NCBI GenBank assembly: GCA_963931155.1
Contig: OZ006978.1
Location: 1,300,692-1,364,691 of the forward strand
Source: an uncultured Clostridia bacterium
GTDB taxonomy: Bacteria; Bacillota; Clostridia; TANB77; CAG-508
DNA: 64,000 nt
Reading direction: 5' to 3'
The translations under genes were made by a program, and so were the position numbers. Numbering within the stretch: position 1 is the stretch's first letter; every line of letters starts with the position of its first letter. Under the pieces are notes generated by a model, which saw nothing but the letters and a program-made list of their open reading frames with translations, did no database searches and was not told where the DNA came from. This document shows positions 5,883 through 58,142 of the stretch, piece by piece.

Positions 5883-8003
5883 ATGGTTAAAACTTATAGT
5901 ACAGAATTAGCAGGAAGAAATTTAAGTATTGAAACAGGTAAAATAGCAGGACTAGCAAATGGAAGCGTAGTAGTAAGATATGGAGATACAGTTGTAATGG
6001 TAAATGTTACAGCTTCGAAAGAGCCAAGAGAAGGAATAGACTTTTTTCCACTTTCAGTAGATTATGAAGAAAAATTATATTCAGTGGGAAAAATTCCTGG
6101 GGGATTTAACAAAAGAGAGGGAAAACCATCAGAAAAGGCAATACTTACATCAAGAGCAATAGATAGACCTCTTCGTCCTCTATTTCCAAAAGATTTTAGA
6201 AATGATGTATGTGTTACAGCAACAGTATTATCAGTTGAGCAGGATAATAGTCCAGAAGTTTGTAGTATGATTGGTGCAAGTGCTGCACTTTCAATTTCAG
6301 ATATACCATTTGGAGGACCAACTGCAGCAGTAGCCGTTGGCTGGGTAGATGGAGAAATAGTTATTAATCCAACAGTAGAGCAAAGAAAAAGAAGCAAATT
6401 AACTGCAACAGTTGCAGGAACATTAGATAAAATAACTATGATAGAAGCAGGAGCAGATGAAATACCTAATGAAAAAATGTTAGAAGCAATTGAAAAAGCT
6501 CATATTGAAATTAAAAACATTTGTAATTTTATATCGGATATAAAAGCAGAAATAGGAAAGCCAAAATTTGAATATAAATCATTTGCAGTAGATCCGGAAT
6601 TTTATCAAGATATTGTTGAGCATTTCAAAGATAGAATGTATCAAGATGTACAAGCTACAGATAAAGAAGTAAGAGATGCAAATATAGATAAAATAACAGA
6701 AGATATTACAGCTTATGTTATAGAAAAATATGGCGAAGAGGCAGAAGAGGAGAGAAAATCAGACATAGCAGACAGTATACATGACTTAGAAAAAGCATGT
6801 GTAAGAGAGATGATATTAAAAGAGCACAAACGTCCAGATGGTAGAAAAATTGATGAAATAAGACCTCTTTCATGTGAAGTTGGAGTACTTCCAAGAGTAC
6901 ATGGAAGTGCAATTTTCACAAGAGGACAAACACAAGTAATGTCAATTGTAACACTTGGAATGAAAAGTGAAGAACAAATATTAGATGGAATTGATGAAGA
7001 AACAGAAAAAAGATATATGCATCAATATAATTTCCCTTCATATTCAGTAGGTGAAGCAAGACCATCAAGAGGTCCAGGAAGAAGAGAAATAGGGCATGGA
7101 GCTTTAGCAGAAAAAGCATTAGTTCCAGTATTACCATCAGAAGAAGAATTTCCATATGCAATAAGAGTAGTATCTGAAGTATTATCTTCAAATGGATCAA
7201 CATCACAAGCAAGTATCTGTGGTAGTACATTAGCATTAATGGATGCAGGTGTTCCTATTAGAAAGCCAGTTGCAGGAATTTCAACAGGACTAGTAACAGA
7301 TAAAGAAGATACAAGTAACTATATAATGCTTACAGATATTCAAGGAATAGAAGACTTCTTTGGAGACATGGACTTTAAAGTAGGTGGTACAAAAGATGGA
7401 ATAACAGCAATACAAGTTGATATAAAAATAGATGGTTTAACATATGACATAATAAAAGAAGCATTTGAAAGAACAAAAGTTGCAAGAGATTATATATTAG
7501 ATGAAATAATGCTTCCTGTTATAGATAAACCAAGAGCAGATATTTCTAAATATGCACCAAGAATAAATACAACACAAATAAGTGTAGACAAAATAAAAGA
7601 TGTAATAGGACCTGGCGGAAAAATGATTAATAAAATTATTGAAGAAACAGGAGTAAAAATTGATATTGAAGAGGATGGCAAAGTTTGTGTTTATTCAAAT
7701 GATCCAGAAAGTGGAAAAAAAGCATTAAAAATGATTGAAAATATTGCAAGAGAAATTGAAGTTGGTGGAATATATGATGGTATAGTTACAAGAATAATGT
7801 CATTTGGAGCATTTGTAGATGTAGGAGGAGGAAAAGAAGGATTACTTCATATATCGAAAATTTCAAATAAAAGAGTTGAAAAAGTTGAAGATGTACTTTC
7901 TGTAGGTGATGAAGTTACAGTAAAAGTATATGAAATAGACCATCAAGGAAGAATAAATTTAACAATGAAAGACTTAGAAGCAGGAAATAAAGAAGAAGAA
8001 TAG
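5883..8003 (+). CDS. pnp: polyribonucleotide nucleotidyltransferase (PNPase)
   Basis: 706 aa with two RNase PH domains, KH and S1 domains. Canonical N-terminus and conserved motifs. Confidence 0.95.
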   Translation: MVKTYSTELAGRNLSIETGKIAGLANGSVVVRYGDTVVMVNVTASKEPREGIDFFPLSVDYEEKLYSVGKIPGGFNKREGKPSEKAILTSRAIDRPLRPLFPKDFRNDVCVTATVLSVEQDNSPEVCSMIGASAALSISDIPFGGPTAAVAVGWVDGEIVINPTVEQRKRSKLTATVAGTLDKITMIEAGADEIPNEKMLEAIEKAHIEIKNICNFISDIKAEIGKPKFEYKSFAVDPEFYQDIVEHFKDRMYQDVQATDKEVRDANIDKITEDITAYVIEKYGEEAEEERKSDIADSIHDLEKACVREMILKEHKRPDGRKIDEIRPLSCEVGVLPRVHGSAIFTRGQTQVMSIVTLGMKSEEQILDGIDEETEKRYMHQYNFPSYSVGEARPSRGPGRREIGHGALAEKALVPVLPSEEEFPYAIRVVSEVLSSNGSTSQASICGSTLALMDAGVPIRKPVAGISTGLVTDKEDTSNYIMLTDIQGIEDFFGDMDFKVGGTKDGITAIQVDIKIDGLTYDIIKEAFERTKVARDYILDEIMLPVIDKPRADISKYAPRINTTQISVDKIKDVIGPGGKMINKIIEETGVKIDIEEDGKVCVYSNDPESGKKALKMIENIAREIEVGGIYDGIVTRIMSFGAFVDVGGGKEGLLHISKISNKRVEKVEDVLSVGDEVTVKVYEIDHQGRINLTMKDLEAGNKEEE

Positions 8004-8016
8004 TTTATAAAATAGG

Positions 8017-8140
8017 AATTGTGCCAATGGAGACAGTGAAGTGAACCCAAATTATTAGACAAAAAAGTTTAATAAGGAGGGTTCATTTTCATGTGTACTG
8101 AACCCATTGGCACAATTGTTTTATATAAAATTAAAAAAAC
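8017..8140 (+). terminator. large compound hairpin terminator downstream of pnp
   Basis: Perfect 14-bp outer stem (aattgtgccaatgg / ccattggcacaatt) enclosing competing inner pairings (gtgaaccc, gggttca, ctgaaccc). Followed by a T-rich tract. Confidence 0.55.
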
Positions 8141-8279
8141 GAGCCCGTTTTCTTTTGTAAATTTTAAAAAAATTAATTTTTTATAAAAACTGTTGTAAAA
8201 AGTTGTAATAATTGATATACTAATGGTATTAAAAAAGCGTAACATGCTTTTTCTTAGAATTCTTTAAGGAGGTAAAGTA

Positions 8280-8729
8280 ATGGAAGATAATAAAGAAATA
8301 AATGAAGTTACAAACAATGTAGAAAATGAAGGAGAGGTAACACTTGAAAATAATTCAAACATAAAAATAGCAGATGACGTTATTGCGGTTATTGCCGGAG
8401 CAGCAGCTTCAGAAGTGCCAGGAGTTTCTTCAATGGCAGGAGGTTTCGCAGGAGGAATTTCTGAAGTGTTTAGTGGTAAGAAAAACTTTGCTAAAGGTAT
8501 TAAAGTGGAAGCTGGAGAAAAAGAAACTAGAATAGATGTTAACATAATCGTGGAATATGGAGTAAGAATTCCAGATGTTGCTTTTGAAATTCAAAATAGA
8601 GTTAAAAAAGCTGTTGAAAGTATGACTGGACTAAAAGTTTTAGATGTAAATGTTCATGTTCAAGGTGTTAATACTGATGCAAATAATGTAGAAGAAATGA
8701 AACAAGATGGTTCTAATAAACCAGAATAA
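8280..8729 (+). CDS. Asp23/Gls24 family alkaline shock protein
   Basis: Asp23-type sequence (ADDVIAVIAGAAASEVPGV...). SD AAGGAGG. Confidence 0.85.
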   Translation: MEDNKEINEVTNNVENEGEVTLENNSNIKIADDVIAVIAGAAASEVPGVSSMAGGFAGGISEVFSGKKNFAKGIKVEAGEKETRIDVNIIVEYGVRIPDVAFEIQNRVKKAVESMTGLKVLDVNVHVQGVNTDANNVEEMKQDGSNKPE

Positions 8730-8849
8730 TATTTATAAGGCACTTTAAAAATTACATTATTTCAAAATATTATGAATATAGATTGCAGAAGTTGAAATAA
8801 AATAATTTTAGAGTGCCTTTTCTAAGTAGCGGAAAGGTAGGAAAATAAA

Positions 8850-9425
8850 ATGAGAAAATTAGAAAAATTATCATTAATACTTTTTTCAACAATAATGCTT
8901 ATAATTTCAGTTGTACTATGTTTAACAATATTTGGGTGGTTAGATTATAGATTTGTAGAAGATGCTTTAGAAATTGCGATAAAGAATGAAGTAACATCTA
9001 AAATTCTTTTGACTTTAAGTATAATATTTATATTACTTTCAATAAAATGTATTTTCTTTGATTCAAGTGCAAAAGATGATGAGGAGAACAAAAAAGGAAT
9101 ATTGTTAGAAAATTCAAACGGAAAGCTTTTAATTACTAGAGAGACAATTGAAAACCTTGTAAATGGTGTCGTAAAAGGTTTTGATAGTGCAGAAGATGTT
9201 ACTACAAAAATAGAACTAGATAAAGAAAATAATCTAAATGTTTTTGTTAATTTAACAGTTAAAGAAAATGCTGTTATTAAAGAATTGTCTACAAATCTTC
9301 AAAACAAAATTAAAGATACAATAAAGAAAGCATCAGATTTAGAGGTAAAGGAAGTAAATATAAAAGTGAAGAATATAGAACCAGTAAAAGACATAGAGCA
9401 GACAACGATTGAGGGAGAAAAATAA
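8850..9425 (+). CDS. alkaline shock response membrane anchor protein (AmaP-like)
   Basis: N-terminal TM plus an Asp23-like C-terminal region. Conserved position after asp23. Confidence 0.6.
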   Translation: MRKLEKLSLILFSTIMLIISVVLCLTIFGWLDYRFVEDALEIAIKNEVTSKILLTLSIIFILLSIKCIFFDSSAKDDEENKKGILLENSNGKLLITRETIENLVNGVVKGFDSAEDVTTKIELDKENNLNVFVNLTVKENAVIKELSTNLQNKIKDTIKKASDLEVKEVNIKVKNIEPVKDIEQTTIEGEK

Positions 9426-16792: not shown

Positions 16793-19411
16793 ATGGCAGG
16801 ATATTCACCAATGATGCAACATTATTTGGATACTAAAAATCAATACAAAGATTGTATACTATTTTATAGATTAGGCGATTTTTATGAAATGTTTTTTGAT
16901 GATGCAATTAATGTTTCTAGAGAATTAGAGCTAACACTTACAGGAAAAGAGTGTGGAATGGAAGAAAGAGCACCTATGTGTGGTGTTCCATATCATGCGG
17001 CAGAAAATTATATTTCAAAACTTATAGCTAAAGGATATAAAGTTGCTATTTGTGAGCAAATGGAAGATCCCAAAAAAGCCAAAGGAATGGTTAAAAGAGA
17101 TGTTATAAGAGTTATAACACCAGGAACTGTTATAGAGGCTAATTTACTAGACGATAGGAAAAATAATTATATAATGTGTGTTTATAAAAATGGGATATAT
17201 TTTGGGATAACTGTATGTGATGTGACAACAGGTGATTTTAGAACAACTGAAATAAGAGAAACAAATAACTTTACATCTCTTATGGACGAAATTTCAAAAT
17301 ATTCTCCAGCAGAACTTGTTGTGAATCAAATGATGTTCGATTCTAAAGAAGAAATTGACAAGATAAAAGAAAGATTTGAGGTATATGTAACAAGACTTGA
17401 TGAAGACAAATTTGTAAATAATAAAGAAAAACTAATAGAAAAATATAAAATTATAGATGATGAAAATAATGAAATTGAAAATATAGAAGCATATAATTTA
17501 TCAATACCTGCTACAAATGCTCTACTAGCGTATTTATTAGACACTCAAAAAAATAGTTTAGACCATATAAATAAATTGGTAATATATAATACAACTAAAT
17601 ATATGGCATTAGACATAAATGCCAGAAGAAATTTAGAAATAACAGAGAAACTTAGAGATAAAACTAAAAAAGGAACTCTTTTATGGGTGCTAGATAAATC
17701 CTCAACATCTATGGGAGGAAGACTTATTAGAAGATGGCTTAATAATCCTTTAATAAGCACAAAAAAAATAAACCAAAGGTTAGATGCAGTAGCTGAATTA
17801 AAGGATAATATTATATTAAGAGGAGATATAATAGATAGCTTAAAAAAAGTATATGATATAGAAAGATTAGCAGGAAAGATATCATATGGAAGTGCTAATG
17901 GTAGAGATTTAATTTCTCTTAAAACATCAGCAGGTCAACTTCCAGGAGTAAAGAAAGTGCTTGCTAATTGTAAGTCTGAGCTTTTGGTAAATTTGTATAA
18001 TAATTTAGATACATTAGAAGATATATATGAACTAATAGATAAAACAATAGTTGAAGAACCACCAATTAGTGTAAAAGAAGGTGGATTAATAAAACTTGGA
18101 TTTAATGAAGAAGTTGATAAATTAAAAACAGCAACAACAGATGGCAAAAAATGGATTGTGCAATTAGAAGCGGAAGAAAGAGAAAAAACAGGCATAAAAG
18201 CTCTAAAAGTTGGATTTAACAAAGTATTTGGATATTATATAGAAGTTTCAAAATCAAATATTTCATTAGTGCCAACAGATAGATATATTAGAAAGCAAAC
18301 TCTAACAAATGGTGAAAGATATATTACAGAAGAATTAAAAAACTTAGAAAACCAAATACTTGGAGCAGAAGAAAAGGTTGTTAATTTAGAGTATGATATA
18401 TTTGTAAAAGTAAGAGATAAAATAGAAGCACAAATAGAAAGAATACAAAAAACAGCAGAAACTATAGCAACACTAGATGCACTTTCAGCATTTGCAACAG
18501 TTGCAGAAGACCAAAATTATGTAAGACCAAATGTTGATAATAGTGGGATAATAGATATAAAAGATGGACGTCACCCAGTAATAGAAAAAATATTACCAAG
18601 TGGAAGTTTTGTTCAAAATGATACATATTTAGATAAAAATGATAATAGATTAGCAATAATTACAGGACCTAATATGGCAGGAAAATCTACATATATGAGA
18701 CAAGTGGCATTAATAGTACTAATGGCTCAAGTTGGAAGCTTTGTACCTGCATCTAGTGCTAGTATTGGAGTAGTTGATAAAATATTTACAAGAGTAGGGG
18801 CGTCTGATGACTTAAGCATGGGACAAAGTACATTTATGGTAGAAATGATGGAAGTGGCTCAAATATTAAAAGAAGCAACAGCAAATAGTTTAGTAATACT
18901 GGATGAAATAGGAAGAGGTACATCTACATATGATGGATTATCAATAGCATGGGCTGTTGCAGAATATATTTCAGACAAAGAAAAATGTGGAGCAAAAACA
19001 TTATTTGCAACACATTATCATGAATTAACAGATTTGGAAAACAAGTTAGAAGGTGTAAAAAACTACTCTATTGCTGTAAAAGAAAAGGGAGAAGATATAA
19101 TTTTCTTAAGAAAAATAGTAAACGGAGGAACAGATGAAAGTTATGGAGTGCATGTAGCAAAACTTGCCGGAGTTCCTAGATTAGTTACAAAAAGAGCAAA
19201 TGAAATATTAAAATCAATAGAAAGAAAAAATGTACTTAATAATAAGAAAATAGAAAAAGAAAATAAAAATGTTACAGAAGGTCAACTTACAATGTATAAT
19301 TATAAATTGGCAGAACTTGCCCAAGAACTTGATAAAGTTGATGTTAACGAATTAACACCAATTGAAGCATTAAACACTTTAGTGAAAATAAAAGAGAAGA
19401 TGTCGTCTTAA
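16793..19411 (+). CDS. mutS: DNA mismatch repair protein MutS
   Basis: 872 aa with Walker A GPNMAGKST and MutS domains I-V. Start at the ATG 7 nt after GGAGG. The ORF track extends upstream into miaB. Confidence 0.95.
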   Translation: MAGYSPMMQHYLDTKNQYKDCILFYRLGDFYEMFFDDAINVSRELELTLTGKECGMEERAPMCGVPYHAAENYISKLIAKGYKVAICEQMEDPKKAKGMVKRDVIRVITPGTVIEANLLDDRKNNYIMCVYKNGIYFGITVCDVTTGDFRTTEIRETNNFTSLMDEISKYSPAELVVNQMMFDSKEEIDKIKERFEVYVTRLDEDKFVNNKEKLIEKYKIIDDENNEIENIEAYNLSIPATNALLAYLLDTQKNSLDHINKLVIYNTTKYMALDINARRNLEITEKLRDKTKKGTLLWVLDKSSTSMGGRLIRRWLNNPLISTKKINQRLDAVAELKDNIILRGDIIDSLKKVYDIERLAGKISYGSANGRDLISLKTSAGQLPGVKKVLANCKSELLVNLYNNLDTLEDIYELIDKTIVEEPPISVKEGGLIKLGFNEEVDKLKTATTDGKKWIVQLEAEEREKTGIKALKVGFNKVFGYYIEVSKSNISLVPTDRYIRKQTLTNGERYITEELKNLENQILGAEEKVVNLEYDIFVKVRDKIEAQIERIQKTAETIATLDALSAFATVAEDQNYVRPNVDNSGIIDIKDGRHPVIEKILPSGSFVQNDTYLDKNDNRLAIITGPNMAGKSTYMRQVALIVLMAQVGSFVPASSASIGVVDKIFTRVGASDDLSMGQSTFMVEMMEVAQILKEATANSLVILDEIGRGTSTYDGLSIAWAVAEYISDKEKCGAKTLFATHYHELTDLENKLEGVKNYSIAVKEKGEDIIFLRKIVNGGTDESYGVHVAKLAGVPRLVTKRANEILKSIERKNVLNNKKIEKENKNVTEGQLTMYNYKLAELAQELDKVDVNELTPIEALNTLVKIKEKMSS

Positions 19412-19500
19412 GAACAAAGCGACCTTGGTCGCCCTTTGTTCTTGCCAATTTGAGTATCCAACAGCAATGAGGAAATCTCAAAAGCAATGGTGATTATAAC
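19412..19500 (-). repeat. core of the interspersed MITE/PATE-like element (inverted orientation) with terminator-like hairpin
   Basis: Reverse complement matches the core found at 28544-28639 and 32672-32767. Hairpin gaacaaagcgacc/ggtcgccctttgttc immediately after the mutS stop. Confidence 0.55.
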
Positions 19501-28510: not shown

Positions 28511-28511
28511 T

Positions 28512-28672
28512 GTAATAGGAAATTTCTCCGAAATTCCTATTACATAAAAAGGCTATAATCGCTATTGCCTTTGAGATTTCCTCCTTGACGTCGGAAACTC
28601 AAATCGGCAAGAACAAAGGGCGACTGCGTCGCTTTGTTCTGTAATAGGAAATTTCTCCGAAGTTCCTATTAC
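28512..28672 (+). repeat. complete MITE/PATE-like element: 32-nt palindromic hairpin + 96-nt core + 32-nt hairpin
   Basis: gtaataggaaatttctccgaaattcctattac at both ends. Core ends with gaacaaagggcgac-tgc-gtcgctttgttc. Confidence 0.6.
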
Positions 28673-28694
28673 ATAAAATGCTAAAAAATTTGAA

Positions 28695-29316
28695 TTAATC
28701 AAACAAAGTTAAAGGATTTATATATTCATCATTAATTCTTACTCCAAAATGAAGATGTGGACCAGTAGTTGCTCCATTAGTTGGATTTCCGTTTTCATCA
28801 TAATATTGATTGCCTTTAACCCCATAGACGTTTTTAGGACCAACATAACCAACAACTTGTCCCTGAAGTACAGAATCACCTTTTTTTACTATATAAACAG
28901 GAGAAACATGACAATATGTAAATTTCATATTATCTTTAGAAAGTGTAATAGTATAACCACCTCCACCTAAGAAACCTGTAAAAGTTATTATACCAGAAGT
29001 AACAGCGATAAGTTTGCTACCTTCAGGTGCACCAATATCTAGTCCAGAATGATATGTAGAAGCACCGAGATGTAGGTGAGGTTCTATAACCAAAATATGA
29101 ATTTATTGTAGTATATCCAGGAGAAGGCCATACATATCCAGAAGAACTAATATCCATTGATATAATAGAATTAGAAGAAGATGGTGAGATATAAGCTAAA
29201 GAAGAGTCAGACATAAAAGGTGTGAAAAACATAGAAATAAAAAGAACTAAACAAATTAAAAAAATCATTAAAAATTTAAAAGGCATAAAAAAACTATTAG
29301 ACATAAAAACCTCCAT
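28695..29316 (-). pseudogene. M23 family metallopeptidase, frameshifted
   Basis: N-terminal ORF (29023-29316) has the signal peptide and WPSPGYTTINSYFGYR. C-terminal ORF (28695-29093) has EPHLHLGASTYHSGLDIGAP and HLHFGV. Frame break at about 29090. Confidence 0.65.
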
Positions 29317-29885: not shown

Positions 29886-29961
29886 TGGCAGGGGTACTAA
29901 GATTCGAACTCAGACTTGTGGTTTTGGAGACCATCGTGCTAACCATTAACACTATACCCCT
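29886..29961 (-). tRNA. tRNA-Trp (anticodon CCA)
   Basis: Cloverleaf folded by hand: acceptor AGGGGUA/UACCCCU, D stem GUGU/GCAC, anticodon loop CUCCAAA, T arm CUGAG-UUCGAAU-CUUAG, discriminator G, CCA encoded. Confidence 0.9.
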
Positions 29962-30010
29962 ATAAAATTACTTTATTATCTTAGCACAAAAAAAAAATTA
30001 ATGCAAGAGA

Positions 30011-30062
30011 AAAAAGAAAAAAACATGAAAAAAGTAGAGGCCCCCGTTTGCACGGAGGCCTC
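30011..30062 (-). terminator. GC-rich rho-independent terminator of the Cys-rich gene
   Basis: gaggcccccg-tttgca-cggaggcctc followed on the - strand by a U-tract. Confidence 0.7.
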
Positions 30063-30099
30063 AGATAGAACCAGCTCTGAATTTAGTCCGTCAGAAGAG

Positions 30100-30543
30100 T
30101 TACTTCTTCCAGAAGTAGAGCTGGAGCTTCTCCTCATCCACCTTGACGATGACCGCCAAGAAGCGATCGTCCTCGAACAAGAACGTGTTTGCCGCCTTGT
30201 CGTTGCAGACTTCCCAGTGGTCGTCCTTGAAGTAGACGCCAGGTATGGCGGTAGGGTTCAGCATGTCGAAGCACGACAGCTTAACCTTGGTGTTGGGATA
30301 ATCGCAGATGGGGGTCAAGACATGAATCGCCGTAGCGATCTCGATGCCCGTGGTGCCGGTCGAGCCGAGGAGTGCATCCACGACATAGGGGTCGCAGTTG
30401 TATGCACATGTGCCCTCGTCATAGACCATGTAGGCGGTCCGGCTGCCCAGAATAGCTAGCACCTTGTCGGTGTTATCACTCTTCCGAGCGTAGTGAGAGA
30501 AGCAGTTGTGAGGACAATAGCCCTCAGATTCGAACTTAGCCAT
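30100..30543 (-). CDS. hypothetical Cys-rich protein (CPHNC ... CAYNC), 147 aa, GC-rich
   Basis: About 53 % GC against a ~28 % background. Perfect SD AAAGGAGG 8 nt upstream. Own promoter and terminator. Confidence 0.6.
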   Translation of the reverse strand: MAKFESEGYCPHNCFSHYARKSDNTDKVLAILGSRTAYMVYDEGTCAYNCDPYVVDALLGSTGTTGIEIATAIHVLTPICDYPNTKVKLSCFDMLNPTAIPGVYFKDDHWEVCNDKAANTFLFEDDRFLAVIVKVDEEKLQLYFWKK

Positions 30544-30619
30544 AGTTGTATACCTCCTTTAGTTGTAATGTGCCGATATGGCTAGTATCGACAATTGTAT
30601 CCCCATTTGGGGCTTACAA

Positions 30620-30652
30620 GTAAATTATACCACAATTAACATAAAAAGGCAA
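30620..30652 (-). promoter_or_regulatory. near-consensus sigma-A promoter with extended -10 (TTGCCT-17-TGGTATAAT)
   Basis: Read on the - strand upstream of the Cys-rich gene. A CCCCAAATGGGG hairpin sits in the 5' UTR. Confidence 0.55.
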
Positions 30653-30806
30653 ACTGACGAAGTATGTAAAAAAATTAAAAGTATAATTTTTAGGACTTTA
30701 TTAATAGAGTGATATAATTAAATATCACTTACATCTATATTCCTTGAAAACATAGGTAAATTATGGTAAAATAAATAATATAAATTGAAAAAATGGAGAT
30801 GAGCAT

Positions 30807-31802
30807 ATGGATAATTTTATTATAGATGAATTTGAAAATTCAAAGCCACCAAGAAAAGAGGAAGGCAAAAAACAACATTCGCTTGAAGGCAAAAGAAGAA
30901 AAAGTATTATAACAATATTTGAACAATCTGGTGGATTAATAGGACCAGAAGAAATTGCAGATGCTTTAGATATTGATTTAGAATTAGTGAAAAGAATATT
31001 AGGAGTAAGGAGAATAGAACAATATGAAATATTAGTAGGTAAAAAGAAACCTACTATACCTAAAAGAGATCGTAGGAAAAAAGCGAATCCATCTGAAGAA
31101 AAAGAAGAAGAAAAGTTAGATAGAATTATTATTGAAAGAAATAAAGAAATATTTGAATTAAGTACTCAAGGAATGAGTTTAGCTGAAATTCATGAAAAAA
31201 CAGGAATAAGCATAGATTTATTAAAAGAAATATATATGTCTTTAGGATTAAATATATATACTGACGAGGAAATAGAAGAGATGAGAAGACAAGCTGAATC
31301 TGTTAGCCAAAATCCAAAAACAGTTATTGCGCCAGAGACTACTGAGAAAAGTGCGAGTGGAGTAAAAGGAGAGATAAAAGCAGATAGCAAAAAAATGGAC
31401 AGAGCTATAGATTTGCAAGAAGGTGGTAAAACTAAAGAATACGGAGAAAGCAGAGTTCAAGAAGAAGTGGATAGTGAAAAGGTAAGTTCAAAAGGAGATG
31501 TAGATGAGCAAGAAAATGGTGAAGAAGGAAATTCTAAAAATAAAGAACAAGAACTTGAAGAATTAAAAGCTAAAATAACAAGTTATGGAGACATTGGAAA
31601 AATGATAAAAGGATTTATAGCAGAGGGGAGAATTGAAGATGCAATAAAATATGGCAAATATTTTATGAACAATTCAGACTTTTTAACAAAAATAGAAAAA
31701 GATAATTTATTTGTTTTAATAGAATATATGAAATCAATAAAAACACAACATTTTCAACCACGTTGTATGGGAGAAATTTCAGATGAAGAAGAAATGAGAT
31801 AA
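30807..31802 (+). CDS. K/R-rich protein with two DeoR-like HTH modules
   Basis: HTH modules (SIITIFEQSGGLIGPEEIADALDIDLELVKRIL; EIFELSTQGMSLAEIHEKTGISIDLLKEI). C-terminal region similar to that of the 33308 protein. Confidence 0.6.
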   Translation: MDNFIIDEFENSKPPRKEEGKKQHSLEGKRRKSIITIFEQSGGLIGPEEIADALDIDLELVKRILGVRRIEQYEILVGKKKPTIPKRDRRKKANPSEEKEEEKLDRIIIERNKEIFELSTQGMSLAEIHEKTGISIDLLKEIYMSLGLNIYTDEEIEEMRRQAESVSQNPKTVIAPETTEKSASGVKGEIKADSKKMDRAIDLQEGGKTKEYGESRVQEEVDSEKVSSKGDVDEQENGEEGNSKNKEQELEELKAKITSYGDIGKMIKGFIAEGRIEDAIKYGKYFMNNSDFLTKIEKDNLFVLIEYMKSIKTQHFQPRCMGEISDEEEMR

Positions 31803-31823
31803 AAAGTTGATTAAAAGCATATA

Positions 31824-31852
31824 ATTGACAATTTACATAAAACATACTATAA
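31824..31852 (+). promoter_or_regulatory. consensus sigma-A promoter TTGACA-17-TATAAT
   Basis: Exact consensus hexamers with 17-nt spacing, about 95 nt upstream of the GC-rich ORF at 31948. Confidence 0.6.
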
Positions 31853-31947
31853 TAAAGAATAAGCCTTAAAAGGCATAGTAGCAAGCATAAAAGTTAGGAG
31901 GACAACCTAGTAAGGTTTGTAGTATTGAACAGTAAAAAAGGAGAAAA

Positions 31948-32475
31948 ATGAGTAGTGTAGTTGTGAGGTTTAAAGAGGAGATGACTTTTCCTCACGTAGA
32001 AGATGCAGGTAAAATCAAATGGCGGGGAGGTTATATCCTAGATGATGTCACAGGAATCCTGGAAGGATACATCGAGGAAGACATCAATGGGGTTCCCGCT
32101 GATGAACAGCGCCGTGCATGGATTTTAGGAATTTGCAAAGGTGCTAGATGGTGCTTCAACTGGTTCGGAAGTAAGAACTTTGACTTCCCTATCACAATCA
32201 GATTCTTTGATGGCAATTTGAACGAGGGAATTCTAGTAGCACTAGGGTCGAAAGACGATAGAAACATTGATATGATTGAAGTCGGCTATTCGACTATTCA
32301 AGCGACAAGACTATCCGGAGAGTGCACAGAAGCAAAAGAAGTAATCAAGAGCATCGTTGAAGATATTAAGGACAGTATCTATCTCCCTGAATTTGACATA
32401 ACAGCTATTGCCCTAAATGATATTGATAATTGGGCTAAATCCTACTACCGACGGAAGACGGGACGTCCTTGGTAA
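31948..32475 (+). CDS. hypothetical protein, 175 aa, GC-rich, no recognised family
   Basis: About 43 % GC. Strong SD AAAAGGAG. Followed by a cctcctttttaggagg hairpin. Confidence 0.6.
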   Translation: MSSVVVRFKEEMTFPHVEDAGKIKWRGGYILDDVTGILEGYIEEDINGVPADEQRRAWILGICKGARWCFNWFGSKNFDFPITIRFFDGNLNEGILVALGSKDDRNIDMIEVGYSTIQATRLSGECTEAKEVIKSIVEDIKDSIYLPEFDITAIALNDIDNWAKSYYRRKTGRPW

Positions 32476-32551
32476 CTAACGGTGCTAACAAAAAAAGAAC
32501 AATGTTCTTTTCCTCCTTTTTAGGAGGTTTTTCTTTTTGTCTTTTTAATGA

Positions 32552-32767
32552 TATAATAGGAATTCCTTCTTATAGTCGGAAACCTAAATTGGCAAGAACA
32601 AAGAACAAGGTTGCCCCCTTGTTCTTTGTTCTTAGTTCTGTAATAGGAAATTTCTCCGAAATTCCTATTACAGAAAAAGGCTATAATCGCTATTGCCTTT
32701 GAGATTTCCTCCTTGACGTCGGAAACTCAAATCGGCAAGAACAAAGGGCGACTGCGTCGCTTTGTTC
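32552..32767 (+). repeat. MITE/PATE-like element: diverged core + 32-nt palindrome + full core, abutting the ssrA 3' end
   Basis: Same hairpin and core as at 28512-28672. The partial core keeps the terminal stem through covarying changes. Confidence 0.6.
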
Positions 32768-32782
32768 AAATCAAAATGTAAT

Positions 32783-33142
32783 TGGTGGAGATGAGGAGAG
32801 TCGAACTCCTGTCCAATAATCCTTCCACATGAACTTCTCCGAGTGCAGTTTGTTAAAAAAATTCCCTAAAAAGAAATTAACAAACAAATTTGTTTTTTAG
32901 GTAGTCAAATAAATACCCTTCATTCCTATGACACGGAAATAAATTCGTTTCCCACATATATGACGTTTTATCTAAAGCTGTGGGGAGCTAAAGAAAAACG
33001 AGCTACTAATCTTAAGCAGCGTAAGCTAATTCTTTATTATCAGCGTTTATATTTAAATTTCGCTTTTTTATAGTGGCCAAAGCGACCATCCACTACTCGC
33101 TATTCATACTTCTGGGTTATTGTCGAAACCAAATACATCCCC
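32783..33142 (-). ncRNA. ssrA: tmRNA (ssrA)
   Basis: On the - strand: 5' GGGGAUGUAUUUGGUUUCGACA, 3' GGAGUUCGACUCUCCUCAUCUCCACCA (T-arm and acceptor). Internal tag ORF reads ...GCU GAU AAU AAA GAA UUA GCU UAC GCU GCU UAA. Confidence 0.9.
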
Positions 33143-33307
33143 ATAAAAAGTACAATAATAATTATACTATAATTATAAAAAAAAAACAAGATATATGATT
33201 ATTACAAACTAAATATTATTTGTAATGTTCATATGATTTATTTACTTGAAAAAAGTATTTGAAAATGTTATTATAATTATGTAAATTAATTATAGGGAGA
33301 AAATCGA

Positions 33308-34768
33308 ATGCCAACTAAATTAGATGAAACAGGAGATAGAAGAAAACAAATATTAGAATTATTAAACGAACAAGGTAGAACTATAGAAGAAGTTTATACT
33401 TTTTTTAGTAATGTACCTCATAATGTAATTGAAAGGGATATAAGATATCTTATTAGAAATAAATTATATCAGCCATATAATATAATATTGAGTAGAAAAA
33501 TAGAAAATGATAATAGTAGAAGTGGAGAAAAAACAGATACAAATAGTGAAACTGAAGGCAACGTTGAGAACACAGAAAAAGAAGATAATTTAACAAGACA
33601 AGGAAGACGACCAACAAGAAGGAAAAAAAAGAAATCACCATTTGATGCTAAAACAAGAAGAGAGAAAGTATTACAAAGATTAAAAAACACTTTAAAAACG
33701 CAAGAACAAATTGCATCAGAATTAGGAGTATCAAAGGGAGTAATTTCTACTGATATACAATTTTTTATAATAAGTGGAATTATAACACCAGAAGAACATA
33801 AAACTAGAAAAAAACAAATAAAACAATTGGCTAAACATAAAAAATCACCCCAAATAGAACAAAGAAGGAAGCAAATATTAGAGTTAATACATAGTACAAA
33901 TATGACACAGAAACAAATAGGAAAAGAAATAGGTTTATCGCAAACAGCGGTTTCGAAAGAAATAAGATATTTAGTAAGTATGGGATTAATATCACAAGAA
34001 ACTTTGGAAAATAGAAAAAAACAATACAAAAGAAATAAAAAAGTAAGAAGTATTACACCAAAAAAGAAAAAAGAGCGAAAAGCATCGAATATGAAAAGAA
34101 AGAGAATAGGGCAAGTGTTGTATTTAATAAAAAATAAATATATGGCTCAAAGTGAGATAGCTGTATTACTAGGAGTATCAAGAAAAACTATATGTAAAGA
34201 TGTAGAATACTTAGTGGAAACAGGTATGCTAAAAAAAGAAGAAGTACAAAGTGCGGCAAAAAAAAGAGTACAAATAAGAAGAACAAGAGTAATTGAATTA
34301 ATAAGAAGAGGAAAATTACCTAAAGTTTTAAGAAAGAGTATTGCAGAAGAATTAGGTGCTGGAACAGCTACTATTTCTGTGGATGTAAAAGTTCTAATAG
34401 AGCAAGGTTTGATTGAAGAAGACGAAAAAGGAGAGTTAAGAGTAGTAGAATCTAAGATTGCAGAGAGTGAATTACTATCAGATGCATTATATTTAGAACA
34501 ACAAGAACAAGAGGAAGATAGTTTAAGTATGACTTCAGAAGAAAAAGAATGTTTATTGATGATGTTTAGACAAATAAGAAAATTGTCATTTGGGGGAAAT
34601 TTAGATAAGGCAATTAGAAATCTAGGATTGGTAAAAGAAATGTTTGGTTTTTCTAAAGAAAAATTAAAACAATTAGAAGATATAGAAAGTTTTTTAAGAG
34701 AAGAAAGCAATAAAAAACAAAAAAATGCTGACAGAAAAGCATCTGGAGAGGAGATAGGAGATAGATAG
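33308..34768 (+). CDS. protein built from five tandem DeoR-like winged-HTH modules separated by K/R-rich linkers
   Basis: Repeated R(R/K)KQILEL(L/I)... followed by HTH (TQEQIASELGVSKGVISTDIQ; TQKQIGKEIGLSQTAVSKEIRYL; AQSEIAVLLGVSRKTICKDVEYL; SIAEELGAGTATISVDVKVL). Confidence 0.65.
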   Translation: MPTKLDETGDRRKQILELLNEQGRTIEEVYTFFSNVPHNVIERDIRYLIRNKLYQPYNIILSRKIENDNSRSGEKTDTNSETEGNVENTEKEDNLTRQGRRPTRRKKKKSPFDAKTRREKVLQRLKNTLKTQEQIASELGVSKGVISTDIQFFIISGIITPEEHKTRKKQIKQLAKHKKSPQIEQRRKQILELIHSTNMTQKQIGKEIGLSQTAVSKEIRYLVSMGLISQETLENRKKQYKRNKKVRSITPKKKKERKASNMKRKRIGQVLYLIKNKYMAQSEIAVLLGVSRKTICKDVEYLVETGMLKKEEVQSAAKKRVQIRRTRVIELIRRGKLPKVLRKSIAEELGAGTATISVDVKVLIEQGLIEEDEKGELRVVESKIAESELLSDALYLEQQEQEEDSLSMTSEEKECLLMMFRQIRKLSFGGNLDKAIRNLGLVKEMFGFSKEKLKQLEDIESFLREESNKKQKNADRKASGEEIGDR

Positions 34769-34832
34769 ATTGTGTTTTATGTGAAATTGTGGTAAAATAT
34801 AATATAGGTACCCAAACATTGGAGGTATTACA

Positions 34833-35300
34833 ATGGAAGATCTGGAACTGGCAAATGTGGTTCTGGAAACAGTCCAACCGTGTGACGATGCAGAAGAGTT
34901 CTTCTACATCGCACAAGAAGGAGGTGTTAGAGAGTACGTCGGATTCATGTATCCAACTAGTCTGGAAAAGGCACGAGAAATCTTGGAGTTCTTGTGCGAT
35001 ATGAGATTCGAGTGCTTCAAGATTGTTGAGGAAGATACAGGTGACATGGTCGGAATCATTTTCGGCGACCCCCTAACCAGTACTATACTGGATGTTTCAT
35101 ACTTCATCGGTGATGAGTATCGATGCATGGGGTACTGCTCATCAGCTGTACGGCAGTTCGAAGAGTATCTGAGGGAGGAGACTTGCTACACAACCATGAG
35201 ATTCTTCGTAAGAGAAGATAACGCGGAGTCTCAGGGCGTGATGAACAAGCTTGGAATCCCTAATGCTTTCGGCAATGTCTACATGCTCGACCTTGACTAA
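34833..35300 (+). CDS. GNAT family N-acetyltransferase, GC-rich
   Basis: About 47 % GC. GNAT motifs (VGIIFGDP, YFIGDEYRCMGYCSSAVRQFEEYL, EDNAESQGVMNKLG). SD GGAGG and a TGG-extended -10. Confidence 0.7.
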   Translation: MEDLELANVVLETVQPCDDAEEFFYIAQEGGVREYVGFMYPTSLEKAREILEFLCDMRFECFKIVEEDTGDMVGIIFGDPLTSTILDVSYFIGDEYRCMGYCSSAVRQFEEYLREETCYTTMRFFVREDNAESQGVMNKLGIPNAFGNVYMLDLD

Positions 35301-35310
35301 CACTTCTCAA

Positions 35311-35352
35311 GCAGGGTGTCATGCTCCCAAAAGAGCATGGCATCCTGTTTTA
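35311..35352 (+). terminator. GC-rich terminator of the GNAT gene
   Basis: cagggtgtcatgctc-ccaaaa-gagcatggcatcctg followed by tttt. Confidence 0.6.
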
Positions 35353-35466
35353 AAATATTCTAAAAAAATTATCAAAAATTGTTTACTTTTGTAACTTTTA
35401 AGTATACAATATACATAGTTAATTTTAAGAGAGAATCAAAAGAAAAAATGAAAGGGGCTATTGCCA

Positions 35467-54515: not shown

Positions 54516-54517
54516 TG

Positions 54518-54647
54518 TAATAGGAAATTTCTCTGAAATTCCTATTACATATAAAGGCTATAATCGCCATTGCCTTTAGGATTTCCTCCTTATAGTCGGA
54601 AACCTAAATCGGCACGAACAAATGGTGACTTCGACCTTTTGTTCTCC
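54518..54647 (+). repeat. MITE/PATE-like element (hairpin + diverged core) inserted between the T-box terminator and the thrS start
   Basis: gtaataggaaatttctctgaaattcctattac followed by a core of about 100 nt related to 28544-28639. Confidence 0.55.
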
Positions 54648-56665: not shown

Positions 56666-57097
56666 ATGGTATATACTGAAGCAACTGAAAGAGCGATGAG
56701 AATCGCATATAATGCACATCATGGACAACTTGACAAATCAGGAGTACCTTACATTTTCCACCCTATTCATTTGGCAGAACAGATGGGAACGGAGGCGGAG
56801 TGCATTGTTGCACTTTTGCATGACACGGTGGAGGACACCGATGTGACCCTAGATGAGCTGTCAGAACAGTTTTCGAGCAGTATCATCGAGGCTTTGAAGC
56901 TTCTTACACATGACAAGTCTGTGGACTACTTCGACTATGTTAGGATGGTGAAGGACAATCCGATTGCAAGGAAAGTTAAGCTTGCAGATCTAAGACACAA
57001 TAGTGACATGTCTAGAATCAAAAATCCAACTGAAAAGGATTGGAGGCGTGCAAAGAAGTATCAAAAAGCGATTGAAATGTTGAATAGGGAGGAATAA
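56666..57097 (+). CDS. small HD-domain (p)ppGpp-hydrolase-like protein (small alarmone hydrolase, SAH-type)
   Basis: 143 aa aligning with the HD domain of the window's own Rel (HPIHLAEQ..., ALLHDTVEDT). GC rises to about 45 % after the first 100 nt. Confidence 0.8.
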   Translation: MVYTEATERAMRIAYNAHHGQLDKSGVPYIFHPIHLAEQMGTEAECIVALLHDTVEDTDVTLDELSEQFSSSIIEALKLLTHDKSVDYFDYVRMVKDNPIARKVKLADLRHNSDMSRIKNPTEKDWRRAKKYQKAIEMLNREE

Positions 57098-57102
57098 GTC
57101 TT

Positions 57103-57139
57103 CCACCAAAAAAGAGACCATTGGTCTCTTTTTTGGTGG
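57103..57139. terminator. bidirectional hairpin terminator
   Basis: ccaccaaaaaagagaccattggtctcttttttggtgg. Confidence 0.7.
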
Positions 57140-57157
57140 ATAGAAAAAGTGATAAAT

Positions 57158-57186
57158 TTGAGAAAATAGCTAAAATATGCTATAAT
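57158..57186 (+). promoter_or_regulatory. sigma-A promoter TTGAGA-17-TATAAT for the synthetase-domain gene
   Basis: Near-consensus hexamers, 17-nt spacer. SD AAAGGAG 7 nt before the ATG at 57231. Confidence 0.55.
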
Positions 57187-57230
57187 TAAAGAGTAAACCG
57201 TTTTACAAACAACCGAAAGGAGTATGCAAC

Positions 57231-58142
57231 ATGAGGGTTACAGACACCCTGGAATTTCCTGATATGCAGGAAATTCTGGAAAAAGCGCACAACATCGATG
57301 ATGTTTGGACTGCGCTTATCGCATGGTTCAGTGAGGATCCAAACAACTTGGAGAAGGTCGCATGTGCGAACAAGCTCATCGAGTTTAACAACATGCGGAA
57401 TTCGGATCTGGTCATCAAGCTTGATCAAGATGTTCGTGAAATCAAAGATGTCCTTCGCGGGATATCCAGAAGATACGGACACACGATTACAGTGACCAGG
57501 CGTCAAAAGGCGCTCATTGGTGTCATCGCAAAGATGGTGATACTAATTCAGCGAGGTGAGAAACGAGGCACGAATGTGTTCTCCTCTCTTGAAAGTCTGA
57601 AAGACTTTATCGGCATTCGAATTGTTGCTCAGACTGGAAAGAAGGATACACCAAAAAGCCAGCAGATGGCTTACGACATCATGAACGAGGTGCTTAGGTT
57701 CCTTGTTGTCGACAAGAAGAACACTCTGTCTACGGTCACACAGGATCGCACGGTGCGAGAGCTGGATGGCATCTTGATTCCGAAGGAGTCTGGAGTTTTG
57801 GACGTCTTCAGGGACAACGTGAAGGACTACTTTTACTATGCCAAACCCAATGGCTACCAGTGCCTGCACGCTGTTCCCATGGGACCTGACCAGCAAACGG
57901 TCGAGATTCAGGTAAGGACTCAAGAAGCCGAAGTGCGAGCAGAGTATGCCGAGGCAACTAGCCATGAAGCTCACAGACTGCTTCGCTATGAAGACTTCGA
58001 GATTCCGGTCGACCTGTCTAGGGTCGACATCGAAGGTGTCACCTTGGTTGAATTCGAGGGCGAAACTTCGGTTCCTAGTGGCACCATCTACGATAGAGTC
58101 GGACTCGTTAGCTCGGTTGATCCATTGAACCTTTTGCGTTAG
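57231..58142 (+). CDS. RelA/SpoT-synthetase-domain protein (small alarmone synthetase / toxSAS-like nucleotide pyrophosphokinase), GC-rich
   Basis: About 48 % GC. Aligns to the Rel synthetase core: DFIGIRIVAQT (DLFALRILV), NGYQCLHAV (YQSLHT), EIQVRTQ...AEYAEA (EVQIRT...AEYGIA). Confidence 0.8.
   Translation: MRVTDTLEFPDMQEILEKAHNIDDVWTALIAWFSEDPNNLEKVACANKLIEFNNMRNSDLVIKLDQDVREIKDVLRGISRRYGHTITVTRRQKALIGVIAKMVILIQRGEKRGTNVFSSLESLKDFIGIRIVAQTGKKDTPKSQQMAYDIMNEVLRFLVVDKKNTLSTVTQDRTVRELDGILIPKESGVLDVFRDNVKDYFYYAKPNGYQCLHAVPMGPDQQTVEIQVRTQEAEVRAEYAEATSHEAHRLLRYEDFEIPVDLSRVDIEGVTLVEFEGETSVPSGTIYDRVGLVSSVDPLNLLR

Follow-up and report, generated by a model that had tools for sequence, protein, structure and literature searches.

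We analyzed the surroundings of ssrA, the transfer-messenger RNA (tmRNA) gene, in a 64-kb window of DNA from an uncultured Clostridia bacterium (contig OZ006978.1). In this window, 2,821 bp separate tRNA-Trp from ssrA. This interval, referred to here as the islet, contains a GC-rich gene of 147 amino acids (aa), a 331-aa gene of native composition, a 175-aa orphan gene, and a hairpin-rich repeat region (32540–32770); a second gene-bearing gap lies between ssrA and a glycosyltransferase gene. The positions given for tRNA-Trp and the tmRNA gene in a preliminary description of this DNA were borne out by ARAGORN and Rfam. The window has a GC content of ~0.27, consistent with an AT-rich genome, and GC at third codon positions (GC3) of the native genes, that is, the other window open reading frames (ORFs) of at least 90 aa, is 0.08–0.22 (median, 0.14). 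The features of the locus are as follows; promoters and terminators are predicted signals, HTH stands for helix-turn-helix and MITE for miniature inverted-repeat transposable element, and loci of related species and same-species contigs carry L numbers.

29886–29961, minus strand: tRNA-Trp (CCA), left anchor of the islet (ARAGORN; Rfam tRNA, 56.4 bits)
29962–30029, minus strand: conserved upstream region of tRNA-Trp, the final backbone stretch ahead of the insert, which aligns with the empty-site loci L027, L029, L003, and L009
30027–30652, minus strand: GC-rich self-contained cassette, with a promoter-like sequence (30652–30624), an ORF of 147 aa (30543–30100), and a terminator (30062–30037) plus T-run
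30744–31802, plus strand: native-composition gene, with a promoter-like sequence (30744–30772) and an ORF of 331 aa (30807–31802); GC3 0.14
31825–32537, plus strand: orphan-gene cassette, with a promoter (31825–31853), an ORF of 175 aa (31948–32475), and a terminator (32512–32527) plus T-run
32540–32635, plus strand: degenerate part-copy of a MITE-like repeat, 72% identical to the full copy over 65 nt
32636–32770, plus strand: full copy of the MITE-like repeat, ~130 nt, three hairpins, fold z-scores −6.8 and −7.1
32783–33142, minus strand: full-length ssrA, right anchor of the islet (ARAGORN; Rfam, 164.5 bits; tag ADNKELAYAA)
33199–35351, plus strand: second variable gap, from the ssrA upstream region to the glycosyltransferase gene; backbone homology breaks at 33198 and 35352
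33308–34768, plus strand: multi-HTH protein, 486 aa, at least four winged-HTH repeats, native GC; MarR_2, HTH_11, and DeoR matches
34833–35300, plus strand: GC-rich GNAT acetyltransferase (Acetyltransf_3, 2e-13); GC3 0.54

A synteny comparison, suggested in the preliminary description, found the locus to be variable among relatives. The sample comprised 80 loci from different species, anchored on the neighboring glycosyltransferase gene, and ssrA is present in 29 of them (~30 related species). The nearest sampled loci are metagenome-assembled genomes (MAGs) of uncultured gut Clostridia; matches farther away include Clostridium sp. CAG:508 and CAG:273. One relative is a circular MAG of 1.57 Mb. 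The order in L027, L029, and L003 is compact: M23 peptidase, GtrA, tRNA-Trp, 71–117 bp, ssrA, ~160 bp, and glycosyltransferase. Across the relatives, the gap between the tRNA gene and ssrA ranges from 62 bp to 8.5 kb and that between ssrA and the glycosyltransferase gene from about 160 bp to 3.1 kb, and both hold unrelated genes. Larger tRNA–ssrA gaps were found in L019 (0.9 kb), L020 (1.2 kb), L023 (1.25 kb), L008 (1.4 kb), L031 (2.0 kb), L022 (2.65 kb), L002 (2.85 kb), L001 (5.6 kb), and L017 (8.5 kb). Cargo in the relatives includes a GH5 cellulase (L031), an adhesin-like protein (L022), a sigma-factor-like protein (L009), DUF6080 proteins (L005 and L012), CinA (L019), and numerous orphans.

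Backbone homology between the window and the empty-site genomes ends at ~30021–30031, after tRNA-Trp and ~65 bp of its upstream region, and picks up at 32782, adjoining the 3′ end of ssrA (32783); the segment from ~30030 to 32782 is therefore an insert relative to those genomes. Order and orientation change here as well. One sub-clade has tRNA-Glu in place of tRNA-Trp beside ssrA, ssrA alone is inverted relative to its neighbors in L003 and L009, and the whole ssrA–tRNA-Trp–GtrA–M23 block is inverted in L033; the 3′ flank of ssrA is therefore a synteny breakpoint.

The islet had been described as variable between tRNA-Trp and the tmRNA gene, and it is, but the hotspot also takes in the 5′ side of ssrA (33199–35351). 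In L027, L029, L003, L006, L010, L013, L015, and L021, ssrA lies ~160 bp from the glycosyltransferase gene. Homologues of the GNAT gene in this second gap occupy the corresponding position in L001 (70% identical; GC3 0.53) and, at lower similarity, in L002 and L091 (43–44% identical; GC3 0.31–0.33).

The 147-aa ORF starts at 30543, directly downstream of a strong ribosome-binding site (AAAGGAGG), and the promoter/terminator scan predicted an 11-bp stem for its terminator. Its GC content is 0.54 and its GC3 0.77. The 175-aa gene has a GC content of 0.42 and a GC3 of 0.41, so the GC values first claimed for the two GC-rich genes hold. The 147-aa protein had been called Cys-rich; cysteines are present, and two of them (Cys46 and Cys91) are invariant among the 11 closest homologues, but the enrichment is mild at 7 of 147 residues. 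An antisense ORF of 152 aa (30001–30459, plus strand) was considered and rejected: the GC3 signal and the family conservation sit in the minus-strand frame, and because its GC at first codon positions (0.73) mirrors the sense GC3, it is not a gene but a by-product of GC-rich, stop-codon-poor sequence.

The 147-aa protein belongs to an uncharacterized family with 11 close clusters and, by profile search, 120 clusters at 50% identity. Members are ~130–190 aa long and share the motifs MA(M/K)YExxG(Y/F)CP and LGxRxxYMVY. The family-wide scan with degenerate patterns used a 17-sequence subset, the 39-sequence alignment having no usable conserved stretch. AlphaFold2 predicted the structure with a mean confidence (pLDDT) of 94.5 from the 39-sequence alignment, compared with 51 from the first 11 sequences, and Foldseek returned no significant match to this model in the PDB or in BFVD, a collection of viral structure predictions. 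The protein has no match in Pfam, PHROGs, NCBIfam, or PADLOC and no sequence match in the PDB, none of the 39 aligned family members matched Pfam, and searches of phage and plasmid collections did not find the family.

The other two proteins of the islet have few homologue clusters. Only five homologue clusters of the lineage-restricted 331-aa protein were found among 5.8 billion proteins; one homologue is in L097. It had been described as a DeoR-HTH-repeat protein. That label is not supported: the ORF has two weak HTH-like motifs but no significant Pfam match (the best, Sigma70_r4_2, is below the cut-off at E = 0.047) and no match in NCBIfam, PHROGs, or PADLOC; the true multi-HTH protein lies beyond ssrA, at 33308–34768, outside the range then described. 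A paralogous relationship between the two was rejected because BLASTP detected no similarity. The 175-aa gene has two homologue clusters only (94% and 52% identical), is absent from all 80 related-species loci, and has no PDB, Pfam, plasmid, or phage match. Its predicted promoter, TTGACA-17-TATAAT, matches the consensus at 12 of 12 positions.

Close members of the 147-aa family are always located beside tRNA-Trp–GtrA–M23 (L001, L002/L100, L091, and L097), and divergent members lie beside tRNA-Trp in L008, L020, and the more distant relative L104. Other members occupy unrelated housekeeping contexts, for example MutS2|FtsY and SleB|MGDG synthase. The composition of the family gene relative to its flanks depends on the host:

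AT-rich hosts: flank GC3 0.08–0.16; family gene GC3 0.32–0.91, always above the flanks
Mid-GC hosts: flank GC3 0.36–0.54; family gene GC3 0.43–0.66, roughly host-like

Lineage-specific changes at third positions of the 147-aa gene ran mostly one way, 84 from GC to AT versus 16 from AT to GC (20:0 in L002, 40:1 in L098, and 8:1 in L001). Divergence of the gene is also decoupled from that of its neighbors. Between L008 and L020, the family gene is 28% identical, compared with 73% for GtrA and 89% for M23, and for most pairs its synonymous divergence (dS) is two to four times that of core genes. A 205-aa multi-pass membrane protein without a Pfam match adjoins the GC-rich gene in five relatives (L001:4080–4697, L002:7282–7896, L008:3963–4586, L091:4655–5305, and L097:3663–4280); it is 76–94% identical where the 147-aa gene is ~35% identical, and its gene is missing from the entire 64-kb window.

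The phrase "compositionally foreign" in the preliminary description fits in that GC3 is 0.77 and 0.41 in the two genes against a native median of 0.14. The condition stated there as refuting, close homologues in same-genus genomes at equal GC, holds in part for the 147-aa gene. Because same-genus homologues occupy the same position, mostly at high GC (L097, L091, L001, L002, and L008), the 147-aa gene is not a recent arrival in this genome. The single-gene cassettes had been presented as a feature of the islet. They are self-contained units with their own promoter and terminator, but such units also occur far from any tRNA gene, at 56666–58142. There, between thrS and an 814-aa gene, a 143-aa HD_4 alarmone-hydrolase-like gene (56666–57097) adjoins a 303-aa gene with a RelA_SpoT synthetase domain (57231–58142). 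Their GC3 values are 0.44 and 0.57, each has its own predicted extended −10 promoter and terminator, and the two could together form a small module of the alarmone synthetase/hydrolase or toxSAS type. Given this location, GC-rich single-gene cassettes are a property of the genome and not of the tRNA/tmRNA site.

The MITE-like repeat had also been noted before, and it is real: the window contains four copies, and shuffled sequences gave 0 matches. Besides the full copy in the islet, these are as follows.

28511–28678, plus strand: second copy, 99% identical (99.2% over 28511–28639), with a 32-nt palindromic hairpin on both sides; polymorphic in the species
54516–54645: copy, 87% identical
19394–19498, opposite strand: copy, 83% identical

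The repeat had been said to abut the 3′ end of ssrA exactly. Its conserved unit ends at 32767–32770, 13–16 bp short of ssrA (32783), so it lies close to the gene without abutting it. The 28511 site exists in two states within the species: the window and L082 have the filled allele, whereas the site is empty in L081, L085, L086, L088, and L089. In the filled allele, 129 bp are inserted next to an already resident copy of the MITE's own 32-nt palindromic hairpin, and no short target duplication was seen there; one end of the MITE is this hairpin. The arrangement suggests hairpin-targeted insertion or recombination. In L083, an additional copy lies between the GNAT and glycosyltransferase genes. 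The same-species contig L084 changes to a dapB/DHDPS context exactly at the end of the MITE beside the 175-aa gene (L084:3740–3905), which reflects either a MITE-mediated rearrangement or a short-read misjoin. The MITE is thus a genome-wide mobile repeat and not the boundary of the islet. MITE/REP-like palindromic repeats (REP, repetitive extragenic palindromic) such as the BOX/RUP, Correia, and PATE elements are the class with which it compares. Like them, it is short (~130 nt), non-coding, hairpin rich, intergenic, multi-copy, and insertion polymorphic between strains; unlike them, it appears to lack classical terminal inverted repeats and a short target duplication, and its filled allele is placed by a resident copy of its own hairpin.

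Domain scans and a probe for the ssrA 3′ end agreed with the earlier statement that neither an integrase nor an attachment-site (att) duplicate was seen in the islet. No recombinase was detected among the annotated ORFs at 29962–35460 by Pfam, PHROGs, and NCBIfam scans, and a 26-nt ssrA 3′ probe, allowing three mismatches or fewer, matched only ssrA itself in the window. A search of the islet for att duplicates of the ssrA 3′ end or tRNA-Trp, including the direct repeat near the tRNA side whose search had been proposed, found none and turned up only a 10-mer in a ribosome-binding region; the best partial matches to the ssrA 3′ end within the gap have five to six mismatches over 18 nt. A 15/17 match between the T-arm of tRNA-Trp and the start of the 147-aa gene was considered and rejected, since it is explained by the conserved N-terminal peptide MAKFESEG.

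Both an integrase and att repeats are present at this site in L017. There, an 8.5-kb integrative mobilizable element lies between tRNA-Glu and ssrA (L017:524–9447). It encodes a tyrosine integrase adjoining ssrA (7714–8883; Phage_integrase, 1.4e-26), a Mob_Pre relaxase (1252–2205), and an HTH_3 regulator, and it is bounded by a 15-bp exact direct repeat, TGGTGGAGATGAGGA, at 663 and 9088, which is the 3′ terminus of ssrA. Genomic islands integrated in tRNA and tmRNA genes are recognized, in Islander, by an integrase, a displaced fragment of the target gene, and an insert at the 3′ end of the tRNA/tmRNA gene (tDNA) (PMC4383910), and the L017 element is an island by these published criteria. Only two of the island criteria apply to the window islet: its location at the ssrA 3′ end and its absence from L027, L029, and L003. 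It further resembles an Islander-type island in that its boundary falls at the last base of the gene, its composition is foreign, and the same site holds a textbook integrase element in L017. It differs in lacking an integrase, a displaced ssrA fragment, and an att repeat, in the mixed age and composition of its content, in a gene order that is constant in spanning same-species contigs, and in variability on the 5′ side of ssrA, which 3′-end integration does not explain (PMC4383910). The earlier proposal of a remnant or non-classical insertion hotspot at a classic site is reasonable because synteny is variable, the boundary is at the ssrA 3′ end, and the L017 integrase element uses that end; the account is incomplete in that the ssrA–glycosyltransferase side is variable too.

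Within the species, 21 contigs from independent samples encode the 147-aa protein in identical form. Ten of these were retrieved and have the same neighboring genes, and one of them is named like a contig from a long-read assembly. Five of the ten span the complete order of the 147-aa, 331-aa, and 175-aa genes, ssrA, and the HTH, GNAT, and glycosyltransferase genes. Gene order in the islet is constant in these spanning contigs (most contigs cover only part of it), and the islet shows no sign of current mobility. Divergence, by comparison, is mosaic. The GNAT gene has 52 mismatches over 468 positions in L083 (11%) and the M23 gene 45 over 399 in L090 (11%), with 0–2 in most other strains, and the EF-P gene differs at 13–21 of 585 positions (2%–4%) in L086 and L088 and at about 0 elsewhere. 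Such a pattern would be expected of imports by recombination within and near the locus.

The explanation that we favor, by a little more than even chances, is that the two gaps flanking ssrA are an integrase-free hotspot of gene turnover, built in layers. Both the tRNA-Trp|ssrA and the ssrA|glycosyltransferase gap would turn over in this genus of small, AT-rich gut Clostridia, and the islet in the window would be a layered, currently immobile product of that turnover rather than a single inserted element. The lowest layer would be the GC-rich gene of the ~150-aa family beside tRNA-Trp, in a slot held by very divergent members in several related species; above it would come the lineage-specific 331-aa gene of native composition. 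The 175-aa gene, species specific and equipped with its own consensus promoter and terminator, is the newest of the gene layers and the closest to the ssrA 3′ end, and the recently mobile MITE would be a fourth layer. Change may have come by two routes: integrase-bearing elements that insert site-specifically at the ssrA 3′ end, as in L017, and homologous recombination in the conserved flanks (tRNA-Trp/GtrA/M23, ssrA, glycosyltransferase, and, in relatives, the 205-aa membrane-protein gene), with deletions and inversions probably reshaping the locus as well. We infer recombination as the swapping mechanism, and likewise a GC-rich donor pool: the GC-rich genes most likely came from GC-richer Clostridia, in which the family is host-like, and would now be eroding under AT-biased mutation.

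Hotspots of horizontal gene transfer (HGT) without recognizable mobile elements, in which the flanking core genes recombine, were described by Oliveira et al. (2017; PMC5635113). The window locus resembles them in its fixed, conserved flanking genes, fast-changing accessory content, lack of mobility proteins, tRNA and tmRNA genes, and possible signs of recombination in the flanking genes. It differs in that those hotspots were defined within species, whereas variation here is mainly between species of a genus and islet gene order is constant in the spanning same-species contigs, and in that one slot here repeatedly holds divergent members of one family (PMC5635113). Regions of this kind, hotspots at a tmRNA gene that lack an integrase, have been described before (PMC5635113; PMC4383910). 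The locus adds one more tmRNA-associated hotspot that lost, or never needed, an integrase, from the poorly studied small-genome uncultured gut Clostridia, and the classical and integrase-free states of the same site are seen side by side in sister species.

The composition of the 147-aa gene can be set against amelioration, the concept of Lawrence and Ochman for horizontally acquired genes. The gene conforms to it in having a GC3 far from the host value and a net flux from GC to AT in several lineages; it departs from it in that no copy in an AT-rich host is at host composition, decay is almost absent from one lineage (L097), and a donor pool was not found.

Several observations at the same gene weigh against layered import. 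The databases searched yielded no GC-rich genome with a close homologue, and all 11 close homologue clusters with readable context are in AT-rich genomes, at the same locus. Of the copies in AT-rich hosts, none seen is fully AT adapted, and GC3 goes no lower than 0.32. The gene has a dS of 0.60 between the window and L097, equal to core dS (0.39–0.67), and L097 retains a GC3 of 0.90 with GC lost at 2 of 56 sites; the corresponding losses are 14 of 68 for the lineage of the window and 30 of 84 for L002. A neutral-decay estimate, too crude to decide the matter, predicts a GC3 below that observed if the gene predates the species splits. Repeated landing of one family at the same slot is not accounted for by random hotspot cargo, and the presence of the gene beside tRNA-Trp in the more distant L104 bears on whether the empty site is ancestral or arose by deletion. 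In a rival explanation, the 147-aa gene is not foreign but an old, vertically inherited, and fast-evolving resident, its GC actively maintained, relaxed in some lineages, and the empty sites produced by deletion. In its favor, the gene recurs in the same position and orientation by tRNA-Trp–GtrA–M23 in five close species, L008, L020, and the distant L104, and it is above flank GC in every AT-rich host, other contexts included, and never at host level. A GC-rich donor was not seen, phage and plasmid collections lack the family, L097 has lost almost no GC, and the window–L097 dS matches core values although a GC-rich gene under AT pressure should change faster. However, maintenance does not sit well with the strong one-way flux in L002 (20:0), L098 (40:1), and L001 (8:1), with a GC3 that spans 0.32 to 0.91 among close relatives, with jumps in divergence that are independent of the flanks, or with roughly host-like composition in mid-GC hosts, and the other GC-rich cassettes (the GNAT, orphan, and alarmone genes) are more simply explained by import. 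We consider this resident-gene explanation unlikely and keep it as a live rival because of the missing donor, the missing AT-adapted copy, the core-like window–L097 dS, and the GC retained in L097.

An alternative for the islet as a whole is a decayed classical island, in which ~30800–32782, or the entire 2.75 kb, is the remnant of one integrase-driven insertion at the ssrA 3′ end whose integrase was deleted and whose distal att site eroded. On the right, the insert stops exactly at the ssrA 3′ end, L017 uses the same att site, the 15-bp ssrA terminus, and a 10-nt match to the att core, TGGAGATGAG, occurs at 30794–30803, just upstream of the 331-aa gene. Yet this 10-mer lies in a purine-rich ribosome-binding region, has six mismatches over 18 nt, a score no better than at two other places in the gap, and is absent upstream of the 331-aa homologue in L097. 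No recombinase fragment was found in the ORFs scanned, and the parts of the islet differ sharply in composition (GC3 0.14 versus 0.41). In L097, the 331-aa homologue adjoins HTH-repeat genes directly, with neither ssrA nor the orphan gene between them, and so ~30800–32782 is not one conserved unit. A decayed island is therefore quite improbable. We reject a cassette array of the integron type, or one driven by another recombinase, in which the hairpin repeats would serve as attC-like sites: single-gene units and structured hairpin repeats beside one of them recall such arrays, but there is no integron integrase among the scanned ORFs, the cassettes have their own promoters and differing directions, and the hairpin repeat follows only one cassette, does not mark cassette boundaries, and is dispersed, also by ordinary genes. 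Misjoining of GC-rich pieces of another organism into an AT-rich contig deserved consideration, given a metagenome-derived source, repeats such as the MITE that can cause misjoins, and the change of context in L084 at a MITE end. It is effectively refuted. The identical 147-aa protein recurs on 21 independent contigs, 10 of them retrieved with the same neighbors, and an assembly chimera is excluded by this shared gene order. In assemblies of other species, homologous GC-rich genes are found at the corresponding place, and each cassette has a ribosome-binding site, promoter, and terminator in AT-rich flanks.

What the layered-hotspot explanation does not account for, and the part most worth following, is that the 147-aa family is hypervariable and stays GC-rich. 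It is possible, if doubtful, that a local GC-biased process, or selection acting on mRNA properties or synonymous sites, keeps the family GC-rich (GC3 0.3–0.9) in genomes with a GC3 of ~0.1 elsewhere. In that case, composition would be no marker of foreign origin here, and the tRNA-Trp slot would be a dedicated hypervariable locus for the family. The GC-richness of the family in AT-rich hosts calls into question composition as a routine indicator of recent transfer. Several GC-rich units, each a single gene with a promoter and terminator of its own, suggest how these reduced genomes acquire single genes. Two by-products are leads in their own right: a widespread, uncharacterized ~150-aa family with a confidently predicted structure and no Foldseek match in the PDB, and a small, currently mobile MITE that inserts beside copies of its own hairpin.

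Two minor observations concern the locus and its left flank. An Rfam search across the islet at E ≤ 1 returned only chance matches at the level of hairpins (BjrC68, 25.9 bits, on a terminator, and miRNA models). The M23 peptidase gene (28695–29316) is frameshifted near 29062–29066, giving ORFs of 97 and 132 aa; the window shares this frameshift with the same-species contigs covering the gene. An intact allele of 202 aa, 11% divergent in its DNA, is found in contig L090.

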